Assembly (NCBI GenBank): GCA_015064125.1
Contig: SVSV01000001.1
Span: 3,357 to 67,356 of the forward strand
Reading direction: 5' to 3'
Source: Oscillospiraceae bacterium
GTDB taxonomy: Bacteria; Bacillota; Clostridia; Oscillospirales; CAG-272
DNA length: 64,000 nucleotides
A model generated the notes under the pieces. The model made no database searches, had not been told where the DNA came from, and was given only the letters and a program-made list of their open reading frames with translations. The position numbers and the translations under genes are program-made. Positions 3,253 through 12,281 of the stretch are shown one piece after another. How positions within the stretch are numbered: position 1 is the first letter of the stretch; the number at the start of each line of letters is the position of its first letter.

Positions 3253-3296
3253 CCCCCATAACGTGCAAACTCGGCACGTTATGGGGGGTTTTCCCT
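3253..3296 (+). terminator. rho-independent terminator after the DUF4830 gene
   Basis: CCCCATAACGTGC (3254-3266) pairs with GCACGTTATGGGG (3274-3286), followed by GGTTTTCCCTTTT. Confidence 0.8.
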
Positions 3297-3439
3297 TTTC
3301 GCCTTTACAAAAGCGCTTTTTGAATCCGTTTTTAGGATTTACGGCTGTCTAAAACGCCAAAATCAGCATAAAAACCGCCAAAACTATATATGTTTTGGTA
3401 CTAAATTGCAAAAAAATTGATATTTTTTACAAAAACCTC

Positions 3440-3468
3440 TTCCATTTTTAAAATACATATGTTATAAT
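3440..3468 (+). promoter_or_regulatory. candidate promoter of the repeat-protein gene (extended -10)
   Basis: TGtTATAAT at 3460-3468. The -35 is weak (TTCCAT, 3440-3445) with a 17-nt spacer. About 100 nt of 5' UTR lies before ATG 3575. Confidence 0.4.
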
Positions 3469-3574: not shown

Positions 3575-5401
3575 ATGAAAAAAATTCTCGTATGTCTGCT
3601 TACCGTTTGTATGATGCTTACCGTTCTTACGGTATGTGCATCTGCCGCTGACCCCGTCGCTGAGGTTACCGTAGGCACTGAAGCATTCACCTACGACAGC
3701 ATCACCGATGCTTTCAATAAAGCCGCGGCAAGTGAAAATGCAACGTTAAAGCTGCTCAAGACCGTTGAATTAAATCAAGATAAGCTTGAGATCGGCGGCA
3801 CCTACACCATTGATCTGAACGGCTTTGACCTGCATTTGTACGCACCCTTAAAAGCATCTACCGGCACCCTCACCTTGAAAAACAGCAAGACCACCGGTGC
3901 TGTGGTAGCCGATAATTGCACAGGCCTTATCCTTCACGGCGCGACGCTGAAGCTCGATGCAGTTGCCATTTCCGCAAAAGACAAATTTGCCGTGCGTAAC
4001 GATGGCACAGGTAACGTATATATCTCCGGCAACTGCCAGATCGCTTACGGTATTTACGCGGCATATGCCGGCACGGTACACGGCAACAACGGCGCTACCG
4101 AAAGCCCCACCGCATATTCGGGCCAAAACGCCATTACCGTATATTGCGGTTGGAACGTAAGCAAGGATGCCCCCGCAGTAGTAAACGCCCCCGAGGGCAA
4201 ATTTGTGGCAAAGGGCTTTAACGGCAACACCTATGTGACCCATTTCGAGAACGGCACCCTTGGCTTTGCTAAGATCGCCTACGGCAGCTGGATCGTTACC
4301 GGCATTCTCTTTGCCGCTGCAGCCGCTCTGCTGGTCGTCACCATCGTGCGCACCGTTAATTTCAAGAAGCGCATGAAGCACTACGCCATTCTCCCCATTC
4401 TTCCCGTCATCGGTTATATGACTGATAAACAGTTTATCGTATTTGCGATCGCCGCCGTCCTTTTTGTTGGCGCGCTGGTCTACTTCCTGGTGTCCTTGTT
4501 CTCCCAGAAGAAGAAAGAAGCTGCCGCAAAGGCCGCCAAGCTTGAAGCAAAGAAGAAGCCTGCACCCGTTGTTGAGAAAGCCCCCGTTGTTGAAGAGGCT
4601 CCCGTTGTTGAGGAGGCACCCGTCGTTGAGGAGACGCCCGTTGTTGAGGAGGCACCCGTCGTTGAGGAAGCTCCCGTTGTTGAGGAAGCTCCCGTTGTTG
4701 AAGAGGCACCCGTCGTTGAGGAGACTCCCGTTGTTGAGGAGGCACCCGTCGTTGAAGAAGCCCCCGTTGTTGAAGAGGCTCCCGTTGTTGAGGAGGCTCC
4801 CGTCGTTGAAGAAGCCCCCGTTGTTGAAGAGGCTCCCGTTGTTGAAGAGGCTCCCGGCACGATCGTCAACACCACCGTTGAGGATAGCTCCGGCACCGAC
4901 AGCATGGTGATCGCTGAGACCGACGCCTCCGGAAACGTTGTATATTCCACCTACAAGAAGTCCTTCACCGCACGTATGATCCAGGCTCCCGCTGACGTGC
5001 AGGAGCGCTATGAGACCCTGAAAAACGCCCTCCTTTCCTACAAGAAGGTGAATGCCCGCGTAAGCTGGAGCTACGAGTCCTTTAAATCGGGGCGCACGCA
5101 GCTGGCTAAATTTGCGATCCGCGGCAAGACTCTTTGCCTGTTCCTGGCGATTGACCCTGCAACCCTTGAGGAATCCAAGTACAACATCACCGACGTCAGC
5201 TCCGCCAAGAAATACGAAACGGTTCCCTGCCGCCTGCGCCTGACCTCCAAGCGTAGTGTGAAGTGGGGCCTTGAGCTGATCGAGATGCTCGCCGCCAAGA
5301 CAGAGCTTGTAAAGAACCCCAAATTTGAGGCAGAGAAATACTTTGCCGAGTTCCAGTCCACTGAGGACCTGATCGCCCAGGGGCTGATCAAAAAGATCTG
5401 A
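3575..5401 (+). CDS. membrane-anchored repeat protein: signal peptide, beta-helix-like ectodomain, TM helices, APVVEE repeat linker, conserved C-terminal domain of unknown function
   Basis: RBS is GGAGG. The signal peptide is [27 protein letters not shown]. The Gly/Thr/Asn-rich N-domain (..[11 protein letters not shown]..) resembles Firmicute surface beta-helix domains. Hydrophobic helices lie around residues 238-258 and 285-307. These are followed by a Lys-rich stretch, 16 x APVVEE, and a C-terminal ~150-aa domain (KSFTARMIQ...[13 protein letters not shown]...[11 protein letters not shown]). Confidence 0.8.
4562..4849 (+). repeat. 16 tandem 18-bp in-frame repeats (APVVEE; two TPVVEE and one APVVEK variant)
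   Basis: I counted the units on the DNA: GC[ACT]CCCGT[CT]GTTGA[AG]GA[AG] x16. Higher-order periodicity is visible: units 4-8 resemble units 9-13 (90 bp), and units 11-13 resemble units 14-16 (54 bp). Confidence 0.95.
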
Positions 5402-5413
5402 TCTTCCCACCAG

Positions 5414-5450
5414 AAAGGGACTCCGCATGATGCGGAGCCCCTTTCTTATT
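5414..5450. terminator. bidirectional terminator between convergent genes
   Basis: AAAGGGACTCCGCA-tga-TGCGGAGCCCCTTT with one mismatch. It is T-rich on both flanks. Confidence 0.75.
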
Positions 5451-5451
5451 T

Positions 5452-5895
5452 TCACAAATATTTCTTTAACGCCTCTACGTTTTGTGCTTCAAAGAGGATC
5501 AGCTCACGTGCCAAGCGCGCTCCCTCTCCCTTTCCCTTTTCCATATGATTCAGAAGAAAGGTCATCTCGGTAATGCAGGCGTTTGAGCCTTCGATCAGCG
5601 TTTTAGCAAGCTCAGTACGCGTAATACCAAGCATGCCGCGCCATGCCGCACCCATTTTGGCAACCAAGCGCTCACCCAATGCATCCTTTACTACAGCGCC
5701 CTCCCCTTCAAGCGAAGCGCGTGCAATGGCGGCATATTTTTCATAGCCGTCAAGCTGCAGGGTCATCGCACTCCGTAAATTACTCTCTCTTACATATGGC
5801 AATAAATTGATAATACCGTCCACACCCATTTTAACGTTTTTATATATTGCCTCCAAAGCCAAAGCCTCACTTATTGTTTTCACTGTGCCCTGCAT
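5452..5895 (-). CDS. hypothetical all-helical protein (family not recognised)
   Basis: ORF 5452-5916. I prefer ATG 5895 (MQGTVKT...) because AAGGA lies 7 nt upstream. There is no TM segment and no motif I can name. Confidence 0.55.
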   Translation of the reverse strand: MQGTVKTISEALALEAIYKNVKMGVDGIINLLPYVRESNLRSAMTLQLDGYEKYAAIARASLEGEGAVVKDALGERLVAKMGAAWRGMLGITRTELAKTLIEGSNACITEMTFLLNHMEKGKGEGARLARELILFEAQNVEALKKYL

Positions 5896-6000: not shown

Positions 6001-6969
6001 TCACAAATTGCGGCGGAAGCGCACATCCTGACCAACGAAAATATAAGGCTTATATTCGCAAAGCAAGCGGCTCGCAATGCGGTCGGCATAGCGCTCCTTG
6101 ATCTCCTTACCCTTAAGATTCGTGCTGATAATAGTGGGACGCTTCAAATTGATGCGGTTGTTTAAAACCGTGTAAAGGCAGGCGTTCACAAACTGATTGG
6201 AAACCTCCGTGCCGAGGTCGTCCAGGATCAAAAGATCACAGTCAATGTAACGGTTCGGCTCAGCGGCCGCACGCTCAGTACCCGTGCCGAAGCGAGCGTG
6301 CTCAAAATCCGAGAACATACCGATCGCGCCGGTATAATATACATCATAGCCGCGCTCGATAACACGCCGCGCGATCGCCGTTGAAAGATGCGTTTTGCCA
6401 AGACCCGTGGGACCGACCAGCAAAAGGCTTTCCGACTCCATCGTAAACTGCTCGGCATAATTCTGCAGCTGATCGAAATTAGATTGCATACGAGAACGGT
6501 CGCCGTTTTCCGCATTATAAAACGAAAGGTCAAAGCTTTCAAAGGATTGTGTGCGCATCAAAGCACCAAGTCCTGAGACTTCATAGGCGGCCATCACCAG
6601 CTCACGGCGCATACAGTCGCACATTTTGGTATCGATGAATCCCGAATCCTTACACTTTGGGCACTCATAAGGCGGCAGCGTGTAATCGGCAGGATATCCA
6701 AGATCTGCCAAGAGAGCGGCACGCTTTGCCTGCAAGGTCATATTTTTGGCCTCTGCGGCGGCCAGCTTTTCGCGGTATCCTTCACCCGTGCCGATCACGG
6801 CCAGCGCGATCTCTGCGCCTGTCAAGCGCAGCTCGCGGTCGATCGCGTCGATCTCAGGCGATCTTGCGTGCACCTCGGCCATACGCTCATTGGCAATTTC
6901 ATAGGCACGCAAATACTTCGTGCGATAGGCCTCGCGAATGCGCTTATAATTTTCCCGGTTATATCCCAT
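6001..6969 (-). CDS. DnaC/DnaI-like AAA+ helicase loader (IstB-like ATPase)
   Basis: Contains Walker A GPTGLGKTHL, Walker B LLILDDLG, and an N-terminal Cys cluster CPKCKDSGF..CDC. It starts 1 nt after the dnaD-like stop codon. Confidence 0.8.
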   Translation of the reverse strand: MGYNRENYKRIREAYRTKYLRAYEIANERMAEVHARSPEIDAIDRELRLTGAEIALAVIGTGEGYREKLAAAEAKNMTLQAKRAALLADLGYPADYTLPPYECPKCKDSGFIDTKMCDCMRRELVMAAYEVSGLGALMRTQSFESFDLSFYNAENGDRSRMQSNFDQLQNYAEQFTMESESLLLVGPTGLGKTHLSTAIARRVIERGYDVYYTGAIGMFSDFEHARFGTGTERAAAEPNRYIDCDLLILDDLGTEVSNQFVNACLYTVLNNRINLKRPTIISTNLKGKEIKERYADRIASRLLCEYKPYIFVGQDVRFRRNL

Positions 6970-6970
6970 A

Positions 6971-7930
6971 TCAAATCTCTCCGTATGTTTTCTTTAGCAT
7001 TGCCTGGAAGACCTCATCGGCATCAAAGCTGCTATCGCCCTGCTTACGGCGACGGTATTCCTCCATCGCACGCGTGACATCCTCAACGGTGCGATAGCCC
7101 GCTGCATACCATCTTTCAAGGATGGTATTGGCATAAGACAGGGCAGGCTTTCCCGTCGCGTTCACGGTGGCCTCGTAGGCAAGACCGATCACGTCCATCC
7201 CGTACTGCATGCCGCACACCCATTTTTCAACCATACCGCGCTCCTTAGCGGTAAAGGCGCGTGTACCCATACCAAACATCGCACGTATTTTGCCCGTAGC
7301 CGTAGCCATCACCTCTATACGGCGCAGCCGCTCCTCCAGAGCCGGCGCATCGGTGATCCCGTCATCATAAAGCGACAGCGCCACCTTTTCGGCATAGCGC
7401 AGAGATCTTTTTTCCATGCGCACGCAGTGCGAAAGCAGCAATAATATGTAATCGCCCTCAAGTCCAAGATAATCGACAAGCCCTGCAATGATGGCGATCT
7501 CCGCCGTGTTAAAGACCTTACCAAGCGTTTGCTGACACGCGCCGACCAGGGCGCCAAAATCAGCACGTCCCTCGGCGATGCCTGCAAGATCAGCAGCACT
7601 GTACACAGGCAAGCCACGGTCAGGCAAAGGCTTTTTCCCCTCTGCTGCCCGTGCCGCCGCAGTTTGTCTTGTCGCCTGCGTGCTATCGCCTTGCACAAGC
7701 ACGCCCGCACCGCGCCAGAATGCAAGAGCCGCCTGCACCTCACTCACGGCAAGCCCCAGCGCGCCCGCCACCTCATGAGCACCACGCTCGGTATCCTGAC
7801 AAAGGGCAGGATCAGCAGCAAATGCGCACAGCACACGCCAATCCGCAGGAGTGGCTGAGGATGCCGCATCACTTAATACCGTGGCCGGCAGCGTGAGTAC
7901 ACGCTCACCGTATTGAAAACTGCATTTCAT
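6971..7930 (-). CDS. DnaD-domain replication initiation / primosome protein (DnaB/DnaD-like)
   Basis: The C-terminal half has two DnaD-type repeats (..AEIAIIAGLVDYLG..YAEKVALSLYDDGI.. and ..ERGMVEKWV..YANTILERWYAAGYRTVEDV). Its ATG overlaps the rex stop codon as ATGA. Confidence 0.75.
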   Translation of the reverse strand: MKCSFQYGERVLTLPATVLSDAASSATPADWRVLCAFAADPALCQDTERGAHEVAGALGLAVSEVQAALAFWRGAGVLVQGDSTQATRQTAAARAAEGKKPLPDRGLPVYSAADLAGIAEGRADFGALVGACQQTLGKVFNTAEIAIIAGLVDYLGLEGDYILLLLSHCVRMEKRSLRYAEKVALSLYDDGITDAPALEERLRRIEVMATATGKIRAMFGMGTRAFTAKERGMVEKWVCGMQYGMDVIGLAYEATVNATGKPALSYANTILERWYAAGYRTVEDVTRAMEEYRRRKQGDSSFDADEVFQAMLKKTYGEI

Positions 7931-8619
7931 GTTTCCTTCTCCTCATAAGCGGCCAGCTCTCTTTGACGAAGCTCATAGCAAAGCGTCATCAGCGAATCGC
8001 CGATGTGTACGTTTTCAATCACAGCACCCGAGGCAAAAGCCTCAGGCTCGCTGCCCGTAAAATTCCAGATACCCGGGATACCAATGGCGGACAAGCGCTC
8101 CGCCACGTCCGCTACGTAGGCTTTAGGCAGAGTCAGCACAGCGATATCGACCGTGTGCCGCTCACAAAAGCGCTCCAGCTCGATCATATCGTGCACACGC
8201 GCGTCGCCCACGACCTTACCGATCACAGCCTGATCGACGTCAAAGAGCGCCAAAATATCCACGCCACGTTTTTCAAACATCGGACTGCGCACCAGTGCCT
8301 TACCGAGATTGCCTGCGCCGATCACAATGGCATGAAAGCCCTCGCCAACACCTAAGATCTCACAGATCTTTGCATATAAATAATTTACGTTATAGCCATA
8401 TCCCTGCTGTCCGAAGCCGCCAAAGCAATTCAGATCCTGTCTGATCTGCGAGGCAGTCACGTGCATCATTTCCGAAAGCTCGCCCGAGCTGATGCGCAGC
8501 TTTCCGTTGCGGATCAATTCACGCAAATATCTGAAATATCGGGGCAATCTTTTGATCACCGCAGGGCTGACCTCACCGGCAGCAGAAGCTGGCATCTGAC
8601 GCTTGTTTTCCTGTTTCAT
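7927..8619 (-). CDS. rex: redox-sensing transcriptional repressor Rex
   Basis: AVIKRLPRYFRYL, ISSGELSEMMHVTASQIRQDLNCFGGFGQQGYGYNV, and a Rossmann GAGNLG motif. RBS is GAGG, 7 nt upstream. Confidence 0.9.
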   Translation of the reverse strand: MKQENKRQMPASAAGEVSPAVIKRLPRYFRYLRELIRNGKLRISSGELSEMMHVTASQIRQDLNCFGGFGQQGYGYNVNYLYAKICEILGVGEGFHAIVIGAGNLGKALVRSPMFEKRGVDILALFDVDQAVIGKVVGDARVHDMIELERFCERHTVDIAVLTLPKAYVADVAERLSAIGIPGIWNFTGSEPEAFASGAVIENVHIGDSLMTLCYELRQRELAAYEEKET

Positions 8620-8712
8620 TATTAAACCTCACATCCGATTTTGGTAATTTGCACAATGAGCTTTATCTCCTCAAAAACTGCTTGTCAAGCGGTGTTTTTG
8701 GGATTTTTCCAG

Positions 8713-8889
8713 TTTTCCACAAGTAAAGGTTATCCACATTTCCCACATACTTTTCCACAGGAAATGACGGATTTTCACGCAAAATAAGAGTTTTGGCAGG
8801 TATAATTTCTCATTTTTTCCTGTATTTGCTTGCATATTTCGCATTGAACCCCGATTTTCCACAGCCTTGTGGAAAACCCCTGTGGAAAA
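8713..8889. promoter_or_regulatory. DnaA-box cluster (7 boxes with at most 2 mismatches to TTATCCACA)
   Basis: Boxes are: TTTTCCACA 8713-8721; TTATCCACA 8730-8738 (perfect); TTTCCCACA 8739-8747; TTTTCCACA 8751-8759; TTTTCCACA 8855-8863; TGTGGAAAA 8868-8876 (reverse); and TGTGGAAAA 8881-8889 (reverse). A TTGACA -35-like hexamer for rex (8688-8683, minus) lies about 25 nt from box 1. Confidence 0.7.
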
Positions 8890-8973
8890 TTTATTTTCCC
8901 GTTTGGCTGCGACACGTTTGGATAAAACGACGAATTTGCTTTTTTTTAGCAAAAAGCACTTGACAATTTTTTC

Positions 8974-9990
8974 TCACAGCGCGGGCAGGTCCTGCGCCGA
9001 GGCATTGAGTGCAGGCGTGGCGAAATTGCCGTTTTGATACTCAAAAAATCCGGCCGCCGCGACCATGGCACCGTTGTCACCGCACAACGAAAGAGGCGGC
9101 ACTGCAAACGTGACGCCAAGGCGCTTACACAGCGCACCAAGACGCGCGCGCAAATGTGAATTGGCGGCAACGCCGCCTGCCATCACCAGCGTTTTCCTAC
9201 CCGTTTTTAAAAGCGCCGCCTCCACCTTTTTGGCAATGCCGCCGACGACCGCCTCGGTAAACGAGGCCGCGAGATCCGCACGCGGAACAGGTATATTTTG
9301 TTGATTACAGTGATTGATATAATTTAAAGCCGCAGTTTTAAGACCGCTGAAGGAAAGATCCAGCGTGTCAGCACCAAGAGCCGGCGAAGGCAGCTTGATG
9401 GCGTGTTTATCACCCGTTGCGGCCAGACGGTCAAGCGCAGCGCCGCCGGGATACGGCAAGCCGATCACACGGCCGATCTTATCAAAGGCCTCTCCCGCCG
9501 CATCGTCACGCGTAGCACCGATCTCACGAAAATCAGTAGGAGCGGTCACGTCAAATAGCGAGGTGTGCCCCCCCGATACCACCAACGCCAAAAAAGGGGC
9601 CTCGGGAGCATCCTCTCTCAAATAAACAGCCGCCACGTGGGCCTTGATATGATTAACAGCAACCAACGGTATGCTGTTGGCATACGCAAGCGATTTGGCA
9701 AAATTTACGCCAACCAGAAGTGCCCCGATAAGACCGGGGAAGGCTGTAACAGCCACAGCGCTCACCTCGGGCAGCGTAATCCCCGCCTGCGAGAGCGCCT
9801 CAGTCGTCACACCCGTGATCGCCTCAATATGCGCACGGCTGGCAATTTCGGGCACGACACCGCCGTAAAGCCTGTGCGTTTCGATCTGCGAGGCCACAAT
9901 ATTCGATACGATCTCCAAGCGACCGTTCTCGGCACACACAACGGCAGCAGAGGTCTCATCGCAGGAGCTTTCCATTCCGAGAATATACAT
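8974..9990 (-). CDS. tsaD: tRNA N6-adenosine threonylcarbamoyltransferase TsaD (Gcp/Kae1)
   Basis: MYILGMESSCDETSAAVV, VSGGHTS, and GVAANSHLR. RBS is AGGTGG. Confidence 0.95.
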   Translation of the reverse strand: MYILGMESSCDETSAAVVCAENGRLEIVSNIVASQIETHRLYGGVVPEIASRAHIEAITGVTTEALSQAGITLPEVSAVAVTAFPGLIGALLVGVNFAKSLAYANSIPLVAVNHIKAHVAAVYLREDAPEAPFLALVVSGGHTSLFDVTAPTDFREIGATRDDAAGEAFDKIGRVIGLPYPGGAALDRLAATGDKHAIKLPSPALGADTLDLSFSGLKTAALNYINHCNQQNIPVPRADLAASFTEAVVGGIAKKVEAALLKTGRKTLVMAGGVAANSHLRARLGALCKRLGVTFAVPPLSLCGDNGAMVAAAGFFEYQNGNFATPALNASAQDLPAL

Positions 9991-10005: not shown

Positions 10006-10443
10006 TTATAAATTACAAAGCATCACAAGCGCTCCCTCGGTCGGGTGCGTATAAAAGCGCGGCCGCTTGCCGGCCACGAAAAAGCCGTGCTTCTCGTAAA
10101 GCGCAATAGCAGCGGTATTGCTCTCGCGCACCTCAAGAGATAACGTCACAAGCCCTCTTGCTCGGGCCTGATCTGCAAGCGCTGAAAGAAGCGCATCAGA
10201 AAGACCGCGGCGACGCCACGCAGGGTGGGTCGCTAGGTTGATGATCTGCCCCTCGTCGAGCGCCAAAAGGACCCCCACGTAGGCAAGCACCTCCCCTGTT
10301 TCTTCATGAACACAGGCAAGGCCAAAGGCCTTGTCCGTAAGTAAAAGCGACAGCGCCTCACTACTCCAGGGGTCAGCGAAGCACAGGGCCTCGATCTTTG
10401 CCAGCGCAGGCAGGTGCACGGCACAAACACGCTCAATTCTCAT
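10006..10443 (-). CDS. rimI: ribosomal-protein-alanine N-acetyltransferase RimI (GNAT)
   Basis: GNAT motif HPAWRRRGLSDALL in the classic position upstream of tsaD. The start is ambiguous (10452 or 10443). Confidence 0.8.
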   Translation of the reverse strand: MRIERVCAVHLPALAKIEALCFADPWSSEALSLLLTDKAFGLACVHEETGEVLAYVGVLLALDEGQIINLATHPAWRRRGLSDALLSALADQARARGLVTLSLEVRESNTAAIALYEKHGFFVAGKRPRFYTHPTEGALVMLCNL

Positions 10444-10981
10444 TGCGATCACCTGTCACGAAATGCAGATCAATGGCATCACAAAGCATGTGCAAGCATG
10501 CGCGGTAACGTGCAGCATCACCGCCGTAAGGGTCGGGAATATCCACACCAAGCGTGGTGATCTTAGCCGCATACTGCGGAAAACGCATCATCAGCTCCAT
10601 TGCGTGCGCCCCCGTAATGGCAACCACCTCATCAGCCTTTGCCATCAGCTCCTCGCTGACAGGACGCGCGCGGTGCGCGGTATAATCGTTATATGGCGTC
10701 GCGACCACGCCGGCCTCGGCAAGTGCCGTGACAGCAAGCGCTGTGATCGGTGCACCCACGTCAGGCCAAAGGCCCGCTGATATGGCCGTTATTGGCTTTG
10801 CCCGTGTGCAGCCGTCACCCAGTGCCGCGTCGGTCCCGTACGCACGCATTTTATCGTTTAGCAGCGCCGCTGCCATCGGCGAGCGGCAGGTATTGCCCGT
10901 GCACACAAACAGCACCCTGTGCACACACGGGTCTTCATATTCCGTACGTGCCTCCAGCGGCACGGCAACAGCTTGTGACAA
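10433..10981 (-). CDS. low-molecular-weight protein tyrosine/arginine phosphatase
   Basis: P-loop VLFVCTGNTCRSPMA plus DPYG. I place the start at TTG 10981, preceded by AAGGGAGGG at 6 nt. The longer ORF in the track would overlap the upstream gene. Confidence 0.8.
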   Translation of the reverse strand: MSQAVAVPLEARTEYEDPCVHRVLFVCTGNTCRSPMAAALLNDKMRAYGTDAALGDGCTRAKPITAISAGLWPDVGAPITALAVTALAEAGVVATPYNDYTAHRARPVSEELMAKADEVVAITGAHAMELMMRFPQYAAKITTLGVDIPDPYGGDAARYRACLHMLCDAIDLHFVTGDRNEN

Positions 10982-12139: not shown

Positions 12140-12246
12140 CGTTTTTCTCCTATCTTTAAACTGAAAATAATTATTCATAGTATAGTATAACATAAAAAAA
12201 GCACGAAATCAAGAACCGCACGCAGTTTTATCGCTCTTTTTTCCAC

Positions 12247-12281
12247 AAAGGAAAAGCCCCCGTCCTGTGAACGGGAGCTCC
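12247..12281 (-). terminator. terminator after the HD-domain gene
   Basis: On the minus strand, GAGCTCCCGT-tcacagg-ACGGGGGCTT (10 bp including 2 G-U pairs) is followed by a TTCCTTTG U-rich tail. Confidence 0.55.

Follow-up and report, generated by a model that had tools for sequence, protein, structure and literature searches.

Why should a dense cluster of DnaA boxes lie between tsaD (gcp) and the genes rex, dnaD and dnaC, on a stretch of chromosome that carries no dnaA? The original prediction offered two answers: a titration-type DnaA cluster at the tsaD 3' end, as in Bacillus subtilis, or a DnaA-controlled promoter for rex-dnaD-dnaC. The window, i.e., the whole 64-kb stretch of DNA that was analysed, comes from an uncultured MAG of the Oscillospiraceae/Ruminococcaceae from gut or rumen samples. 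The genes around the cluster are the following:

6001-6969, minus strand: DnaC/DnaI-like AAA+ helicase loader (PRK06835, 289 bits)
6971-7930, minus strand: two-domain DnaD/DnaB_2-domain protein (PF07261, two stretches)
7927-8619, minus strand: rex, the downstream neighbour (NF003990, 258 bits)
8974-9990, minus strand: tsaD (gcp), the upstream neighbour (TIGR03723, 409 bits; PF00814)
10006-10452, minus strand: rimI

The profile matches bear out the identities first proposed for tsaD, rex, dnaD and dnaC. The four genes are co-directional, and the rex stop codon and the dnaD-like start share a 4-nt overlap. Throughout the 64 kb, the GC skew stays negative and does not switch, and the majority of genes are on the minus strand; thus, the region is replicated from the high-coordinate side. 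Neither the window nor any of the 65 related loci described below contains dnaA, and the locus has neither the adjacent dnaA/dnaN nor the GC-skew switch of an oriC. The cluster thus lies outside oriC. No tRNAs are present in the window.

The tsaD-rex spacer is 354 bp of non-coding DNA with eight predicted 9-bp DnaA sites, arranged in two modules and a periphery:

8713..8759, plus strand: module B, four boxes in a single orientation, from the sequence scan
8713-8721, plus strand: module B box TTTTCCACA
8730-8738, plus strand: module B box TTATCCACA, perfect
8739-8747, plus strand: module B box TTTCCCACA, degenerate (2 mismatches)
8751-8759, plus strand: module B box TTTTCCACA
8760..8854, no strand: inter-module A/T-rich spacer of 95 bp, with degenerate box-like sites
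8855..8889, minus strand: module A, a 35-bp triple of consensus boxes (8881-8889, 8868-8876 and 8855-8863)
8917-8925, minus strand: peripheral weak box TTATCCAAA

Seven of these 9-mers had been predicted, and their coordinates and strands are all correct, i.e., TTATCCACA at 8730-8738, TTTTCCACA at 8713, 8751 and 8855, TGTGGAAAA at 8868 and 8881, and TTTCCCACA at 8739. The same is true of the head-to-head pair, in which the boxes at 8855-8863 and 8868-8876 face each other with 4 bp between. The peripheral box is an eighth site that the prediction did not include; relatives also have a weak box here (TTTGGATAA or one close to it), which frequently points the other way. The dominant box of the cluster is TTTTCCACA. 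In gene (minus-strand) orientation, module A reads TTTTCCACA-N4-TTTTCCACA-N4-TGTGGAAAA, with two boxes pointing forward and the third pointing back, and on the opposite strand it reads TTTTCCACA-N4-TGTGGAAAA-N4-TGTGGAAAA.

The box cluster of the tsaD-rex spacer is real and far beyond chance. While there is no enrichment over the whole window (17 boxes with at most one mismatch versus 11.3 expected), seven of the 17 fall within 213 bp (8713-8925), and outside 8600-9000 the whole window has at most one such box per 500 bp and two per 1 kb. With the stricter TTWTNCACA, the published DnaA-box consensus, six of the 14 window matches lie within 231 bp (Poisson P = 8e-13). Shuffling the tsaD-rex spacer 20,000 times gives a mean of 0.12 boxes and a maximum of three, compared to the seven observed. 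The cluster score A of Ishikawa is 0.34 at 8855-8925, with a best value of 0.027 elsewhere in the window; a score above 0.3 is the threshold that sets apart the eight stable DnaA sites of B. subtilis (Ishikawa). A DnaA-box cluster (DBC) was taken to be at least four closely clustered boxes (at most one mismatch to TTATNCACA) with A > 0.3, and the spacer, which scores above this value, has seven boxes with at most one mismatch to TTATCCACA.

Conservation of the cluster was followed in relatives retrieved by a Rex-based search, which gave 65 species-level loci. The gene order tsaD-rex-dnaD-dnaC is kept in 59 of the 65, and three or more boxes occupy the tsaD-rex spacer in 31 of the 60 assessable relatives (uncultured gut Clostridia). 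In the 18 closest species, where Rex is 71-95% identical and the DnaD-like protein only 48-89%, the spacer is 300-400 bp long with four to seven boxes each. The boxes were expected to be conserved if functional, and the cluster is kept box by box in 19 species, with reduced forms in many remoter relatives. In the alignment of the 19 spacers, 44 of the 51 invariant columns are inside the seven boxes, such that 44 of 63 box columns are invariant compared to 7 of the remaining 291 (Fisher P = 1e-33); box columns have a majority fraction of 0.97 and those outside one of 0.59. None of the nine positions of boxes 8713 and 8751 varies across the 19 species, which also keep the perfect box at 8730 and the degenerate box at 8739 in place. 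By contrast, an isolated TTTTCCACA at 12239, used as a control, is conserved in none of the close relatives, including the closest (L050).

The spacing of the boxes is also conserved. In gene orientation, with gaps in bp, the architecture is >(4)>(4)<(95)<(12)<(18)<. Nearly all relatives that bear the cluster have module A with gaps of 3-4 bp, and the gap lengths are kept while the gap sequences vary. In relatives, module B has gaps of 12 bp and 17-18 bp; the last gap is 8 bp in the window and in L050, a 10-bp deletion that corresponds to one helical turn. In 16 of the 19 close sequences, the two modules are 94-96 bp apart, even though the sequence between them diverges (majority fraction 0.62). 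Within this gap, AA/TT steps recur with a period of 10.5-11 bp (z about 29 and 23 compared to shuffles; z below 7 for other periods), and for this property the copy in the window belongs to the highest-ranking 0.2% of all 95-bp windows. With its phased A/T tracts and fixed length, the inter-module spacer thus appears to be intrinsically curved. Module B lies at a variable distance from the motif near rex (see below), as do the boxes from the rex start. In remoter relatives, the cluster is found in reduced versions in which the triple recurs, sometimes flipped; two loci (L022 and L032) have two triples each.

The nature of the boxes is indicated by where else the triple is found. A metagenome search for the exact triple (gaps of 3-4 bp) returned at least 120 contigs of 28-63% GC from soil, marine, freshwater and gut samples, and only four of the 120 contigs listed are tsaD-rex loci. 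In 65 of the 120 listed, dnaA or dnaN is within 2 kb, with at least 11 DnaA lineages represented at 70% identity. Among the matches listed, dnaA is the flanking gene in 51 contigs, and the triple is at most 190 bp upstream of the dnaA start in 50 of these 51, usually with rnpA on the other side. In many lineages of these matches, the triple is ~75-190 bp upstream of dnaA, and it is also noted in dnaA-dnaN spacers. The same set of listed matches includes five GC-rich gut contigs with the triple inside a six-box cluster in the spacer upstream of dnaN; the one contig among these five that is fully annotated has the order yidC...dnaA-[boxes]-dnaN-recF. In 69 of the 120 contigs listed, the triple stands alone, with no other box within 400 bp, and most of the listed copies have gaps of 3/4. 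Because the triple associates with dnaA/dnaN and the boxes fit TTWTNCACA exactly, the boxes of the tsaD-rex cluster are, on the evidence of sequence, DnaA sites. The tsaD-rex locus shares an identical triple with the dnaA-upstream operators and oriC box arrays; it differs from the dnaA-upstream operators in having no dnaA, dnaN or skew switch nearby, and its triple is oriented to the downstream gene in reverse of the usual dnaA-upstream arrangement.

The closest known system is in B. subtilis, which has six non-origin DnaA-box clusters. One of these, DBC[gcp-ydiF], is among the eight stable DnaA sites; it comprises 8-10 boxes, shows a Kd of 0.15 uM, prefers ATP-DnaA 16-fold and is stable in vivo (Ishikawa 2007; Okumura 2011; Smith and Grossman 2015). 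The cluster is described as "highly conserved" downstream of gcp in Bacillus species, with a role that is described as unclear. Shared by the two loci are the non-origin location, the packing of boxes (~8-10) directly downstream of tsaD (gcp) and the conservation among relatives; in the window, tsaD ends at 8974 and the boxes span 8713-8925. The rex gene is presumably also nearby in B. subtilis, in the order gcp, ydiF, moaC, rex. The loci differ in three respects: (i) DBC[gcp-ydiF] is flanked on both sides by the 3' ends of convergent genes and has nothing downstream to regulate, whereas rex-dnaD-dnaC are co-directional with tsaD here, (ii) the dominant box is TTTTCCACA here and TTATCCACA in B. 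subtilis, and (iii) the two-module layout with a 95-bp curved spacer has no described equivalent in B. subtilis. A literature search returned no paper linking tsaD with DnaA boxes. The best reading of the locus is a non-origin DnaA-box cluster, the positional counterpart of DBC[gcp-ydiF] in Clostridia.

As to function, the explanation to which we lean, at slightly better than even confidence, is a non-origin DnaA assembly site or sink in which the modules, joined by the curved spacer, would hold a DnaA multimer away from oriC. DnaA would bind the strong sites and then spread cooperatively to the weak ones, and the molecules on modules A and B would join across the bend to form one stable multimer. 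The locus would in this way hold a set of initiator molecules away from oriC, and the sink, which would double on replication of the locus, may help to set the timing of initiation. As a side effect, the bound complex would probably hinder read-through into rex-dnaD-dnaC, since these genes are co-directional with tsaD and neither a conserved promoter nor a strong terminator is found in the spacer.

The titration-type cluster of the original prediction is thus the alternative that gains support, i.e., from the documented gcp-ydiF cluster, the conservation across 19 species and the tie of the triple to dnaA/dnaN regions. A sink is also favoured by the autonomy of the cluster from rex, as seen in the variable distance to the rex-proximal motif, the lack of a conserved promoter and the insertion of another gene between the cluster and rex in one relative (L060, see below). 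In B. subtilis, the removal of all six clusters leads to early initiation, by which a titration role is shown for the clusters collectively. By contrast, the deletion of gcp-ydiF alone leaves the ori/ter ratio unaffected, the return of gcp-ydiF to the six-fold deletion does not restore normal initiation, and the B. subtilis clusters act best near oriC, all of which count against a sink. So does the capacity of the site, as seven or eight sites have room for just a few DnaA molecules.

The leading rival, which is possible but stands clearly short of even probability, is that the cluster acts mainly as a DnaA-dependent transcriptional gate, in the form of a roadblock or an unrecognised promoter, coupling the initiator level to the supply of Rex and helicase loader. 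Since the downstream genes are co-directional, unlike in B. subtilis, a transcriptional role is possible. In all species with the cluster, the co-directional rex-dnaD-dnaC genes follow downstream of it, and rex and dnaD are translationally coupled in the clade. The same triple is found ~150 bp upstream of dnaA, often as the sole boxes within 400 bp among the matches listed, where it resembles an autoregulatory operator. Certain B. subtilis clusters, moreover, regulate adjacent genes (sda, ywlC and yydA). The elements of the spacer that bear on transcription are the following:

8928..8966, minus strand: conserved element TTGTCAAG-nn-CTTTTTT.AAAAAAG-GCAAATTCG, just past the tsaD stop codon and outside the cluster proper
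8677..8693, no strand: small palindrome that contains TTGACA (8688-8683), flagged as terminator-like on the plus strand and not conserved in L050 or others
8647..8656, minus strand: motif TTGTGCAAAT, ~30-40 bp upstream of the rex start codon, in ~13 of 19 relatives

The promoter form of the gate, as originally predicted, depended on the TTGACA hexamer. The hexamer does exist at 8688-8683; however, it has no -10 partner, lies inside the palindrome and is absent even from L050. A promoter consensus scan of the spacer finds a sole weak site that overlaps the rex start, and a scan of the 19 aligned spacers finds no sigma-A-type candidate with more than 8/12 matches and none at a conserved column. 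No recognisable promoter is thus placed in fixed register with the boxes, and the proposal of a DnaA-controlled rex-dnaD-dnaC promoter on TTGACA falls, the hexamer not being conserved and no sigma-A-type promoter occupying a conserved position of the spacer. The motif TTGTGCAAAT, which may be a promoter or operator piece for rex, is conserved near the rex start; its frequency in the window is not above chance, and it includes no canonical Rex operator match. The element at 8928..8966 is found in most of the 19 close relatives and is missing from five that bear boxes (L004, L005, L008, L010 and L014); it forms weak hairpins only, and its motif is enriched in the window. Of terminators after tsaD, only weak, non-conserved hairpins are found and no strong one, which is consistent with a gate. 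Thus, DnaA control of the helicase-loader genes by blocked read-through from tsaD is possible, as judged from the gene arrangement.

The history of the cluster bears on the same question. On a tree built from TsaD, Rex and DnaC, the cluster is found throughout the clade of the window, in the outgroup L060 and in scattered branches of the sister clade. It is absent from ~25 relatives in which rex begins 12-176 bp after tsaD (at most 87 bp in all but one), and the box-less short spacers (12-87 bp) are nested among cluster-bearing branches. The simplest reading of the tree suggests an ancestral cluster with repeated losses. A search aimed at the spacers of more distant Firmicutes gave TsaD homologues of which the best 120 listed all share 74% identity or more. 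In loci that have lost the cluster, rex directly adjoins tsaD, an arrangement that implies co-transcription, and the ~25 cluster-less relatives with rex close behind tsaD indicate that rex needs no promoter from the spacer. The repeated loss in sister lineages also marks the cluster as dispensable, a point against the sink. These losses speak against a gate, as no boxes reappear before rex or dnaD in the cluster-less lineages. The same is true of the variable distance from boxes to rex start while the internal geometry is rigid, the lack of a conserved -35/-10 pair, the convergent setting of the B. subtilis counterpart and the condition of L060, where an inserted Iso_dh gene separates rex from the cluster, which remains beside tsaD.

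A second and improbable rival, drawn by analogy, is the catalytic remodelling of DnaA, in which module A would act like a DARS core (ADP release) or the whole bent complex like datA (ATP hydrolysis). The DARS1 core of Escherichia coli, taken from the MG1655 sequence, is TTATCCACT-N5-TGTGGATAA-N3-TGTGTATTA, and DARS cores are defined by box orientations, with boxes I and II opposed and boxes II and III in the same direction. Module A has this orientation pattern, with the CACA/TGTG ends facing and a length of 35 bp as in DARS1, and the conservation of its gap lengths but not of their sequences also fits. The spacing does not: the DARS1 gaps are 5 bp (I-II) and 3 bp (II-III), whereas those of module A are 4/4 (3-4 bp in relatives and in the listed metagenome copies). 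Also unlike the DARS1 core, all three boxes of module A are consensus. E. coli datA, like the tsaD-rex cluster, is an off-origin box cluster of ~260 bp with boxes on either side of a bend, and both would lower the initiation potential; however, datA requires IHF at a specific site between essential boxes and promotes the hydrolysis of DnaA-bound ATP, while the bend of the Clostridia locus is apparently intrinsic, through phased A/T tracts. A core, a bendable spacer of constrained length and further boxes together recall datA and DARS2.

Against remodelling, the likeness is one of resemblance only, and any strong cooperative site would be expected to show the same triple. Firmicute DnaA exchanges nucleotide quickly and so has no need for DARS. 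For DARS-type elements, nucleotide-exchange activity is not known beyond the proteobacteria. According to reviews, none of DARS, datA, IHF and Fis has been found in B. subtilis, and the spacing of DARS2 is reported to be conserved only in beta- and gamma-proteobacteria. The resemblance of module A to DARS is thus a lead of low probability and not a classification. In its broadest form, the analogy would make the triple, which occurs at tsaD-rex, ~150 bp upstream of dnaA across many phyla and in the dnaA-dnaN spacers of gut Firmicutes, an ancient and widespread DnaA-remodelling unit of the DARS-core type, which in the Clostridia clade of the window together with the curved spacer and the four-box array would form a datA/DARS2-like locus that changes the nucleotide state of DnaA and gates the helicase-loading genes. 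This form is similarly doubtful; if true, control of the DARS/datA type would not be confined to proteobacteria.

It is very improbable that the 9-mers are bound by another protein (e.g., Rex) or form a functionless repeat. The rex gene is directly downstream, and TGTGGAA is loosely similar to the Rex half-site TTGTGAA; however, Rex autoregulation through an operator in the spacer is rejected, as no match to TTGTGAA-N4-TTCACAA is found there with up to 3 mismatches, and the facing ends of the box pairs are opposite to those of a Rex operator. The presence of the identical triple with dnaA/dnaN across phyla, among the matches listed, also argues against another protein, and the box-specific invariance across 19 species excludes a neutral repeat. 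A hidden gene, in the form of a 93-aa ORF (8671-8952) reported by public gene callers, is discarded: the ORF has no Pfam match, its frame shifts relative to the boxes among relatives, and both strands are stop-poor. An RNA element is also rejected, as Rfam gives no match in the spacer (E up to 1) and none in the whole window (gathering thresholds). The lack of a conserved reading frame and of an Rfam match likewise weighs against a different or absent function. Least credible of all is a replication origin, whether oriC or a second or relic origin beside the helicase-loader genes, since the many DnaA boxes flanking an A/T-rich stretch and the adjoining dnaD and dnaC are outweighed by the unswitched skew and missing dnaA, a housekeeping and syntenic gene string, the free loss of the cluster in sister lineages and the lack of a DnaA-trio-like repeat beside the outer boxes, as judged by eye only in the window sequence and the 19-spacer alignment.

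To our knowledge, experimental work on off-origin DnaA-box clusters is limited to a few model bacteria. While the kind of cluster is already known, the present locus adds the rigid two-module geometry, the triple as a phylum-spanning unit and the natural series of presence and absence. That a distant clade of uncultured Clostridia also has a cluster at this gene boundary argues that the position downstream of tsaD is functionally meaningful, or very old. The repeated clean losses provide natural "deletion mutants" for comparison. The adjacency of the cluster to rex-dnaD-dnaC leads to the testable hypothesis that the initiator level is linked to helicase-loader supply, and the likeness of module A to the DARS core leads to a biochemical hypothesis that is also testable. 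The 35-bp triple marks DnaA control regions across phyla, and could improve the prediction of origins and regulons in metagenomes.

Two differences among relatives concern the putative DnaA boxes of the tsaD-rex spacer. Within module B, the rex-side part of the cluster, the gap between the last two boxes (window 8722-8729) is 8 bp in the window and in its closest relative (L050), compared with 17-18 bp in the other close relatives (L001-L017); relative to these, the window and L050 carry a 10-bp deletion, i.e., one helical turn. The peripheral box at 8917-8925 reads TTTATCCAAA in the window, while L012 and L015 have its exact reverse complement, TTTGGATAAA, at the aligned place. This box may have been retained with its orientation flipped.

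The spacer includes two further conserved elements:

8928-8966, minus strand, conserved element TTGTCAAG-nn-CTTTTTT.AAAAAAG-GCAAATTCG, directly past the tsaD stop
8647-8656, minus strand, TTGTGCAAAT, preceding the rex start by about 30-40 bp

The first of these is separable from the boxes, as it is absent from L004, L005, L008, L010 and L014. The window contains 7 copies of the motif TTGTCAAGNNCTTTTT at two or fewer mismatches, versus 0.53 expected. The second element, TTGTGCAAAT, is kept in about 13 of 19 relatives and, in some of them, makes TTGTG-N6-CACAA, than which the canonical Rex operator is 2 bp longer; TTGTGCAAAT could serve as the promoter of rex or, alternatively, be an atypical site for Rex. 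A 93-aa ORF that public gene callers place across the cluster (8671-8952, minus strand) is spurious, because it has no family match and its frame is not conserved in relatives.

In the outgroup that carries the cluster (L060), an isocitrate/isopropylmalate dehydrogenase gene (4438-5694, Pfam-confirmed) is inserted between tsaD and rex, and the DnaA boxes still lie between tsaD and this inserted gene. A dehydrogenase gene of this type is likewise found between tsaD and rex in the related locus L062 (judged by eye), where the tsaD-rex region is without DnaA boxes. The rex and dnaD-like genes of the window overlap by 4 nt (7927-7930), a case of translational coupling; throughout the window's clade the two genes abut or are at most about 30 bp apart, compared with a separation of 40-190 bp in much of the sister clade (loci compared with the window: L018-L059).

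Outside of this region, no close relative keeps the single TTTTCCACA at 12239-12247, upstream of a dCMP-deaminase-like gene, and chance probably accounts for it. The 10.5-bp AA/TT periodicity of the window is strongest at 3290-3450 (GC about 0.27-0.36), a stretch of curved DNA that sits upstream of a 608-aa repeat-rich ORF (3575-5401).

The three-box unit of module A (the triple) recurs in metagenome contigs (L066-L185); named below are five that share a larger arrangement and one example of the exact triple:

L087, L091 (5316-5348), L156, L172, L182, GC about 0.57, six-box cluster
L075, 4043-4076, metagenome contig, example of the exact triple upstream of dnaA

Among the matches listed, the six-box cluster, >(3)>(3)<(4)<(132)>(70)>, is common to these five contigs, at least one of which is from human gut metagenome, and lies about 450 bp upstream of dnaN. 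L091, the sole annotated contig of the five, has the order yidC...dnaA-[cluster]-dnaN-recF, likely an oriC. Apart from dnaA, dnaN and rnpA, the genes flanking the triple among the matches listed include NuiA-like (6 contigs), a Kyanoviridae Gp96-like ORF (5 contigs, possibly cyanophage or cyanobacterial) and HU (4 contigs), as well as trmE and jag-like genes, a neighbourhood that matches a cluster site in B. subtilis too.

The exact form TTTTCCACA-N3/4-TTTTCCACA-N3/4-TGTGGAAAA is found about 75-190 bp upstream of dnaA among the matches listed, with one direction preferred (46 of 50), and often there are no further DnaA boxes within 400 bp of it. The triple spans at least 11 DnaA lineages among the metagenome contigs. 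It appears to be a widespread operator unit of dnaA that has the topology of a DARS core.
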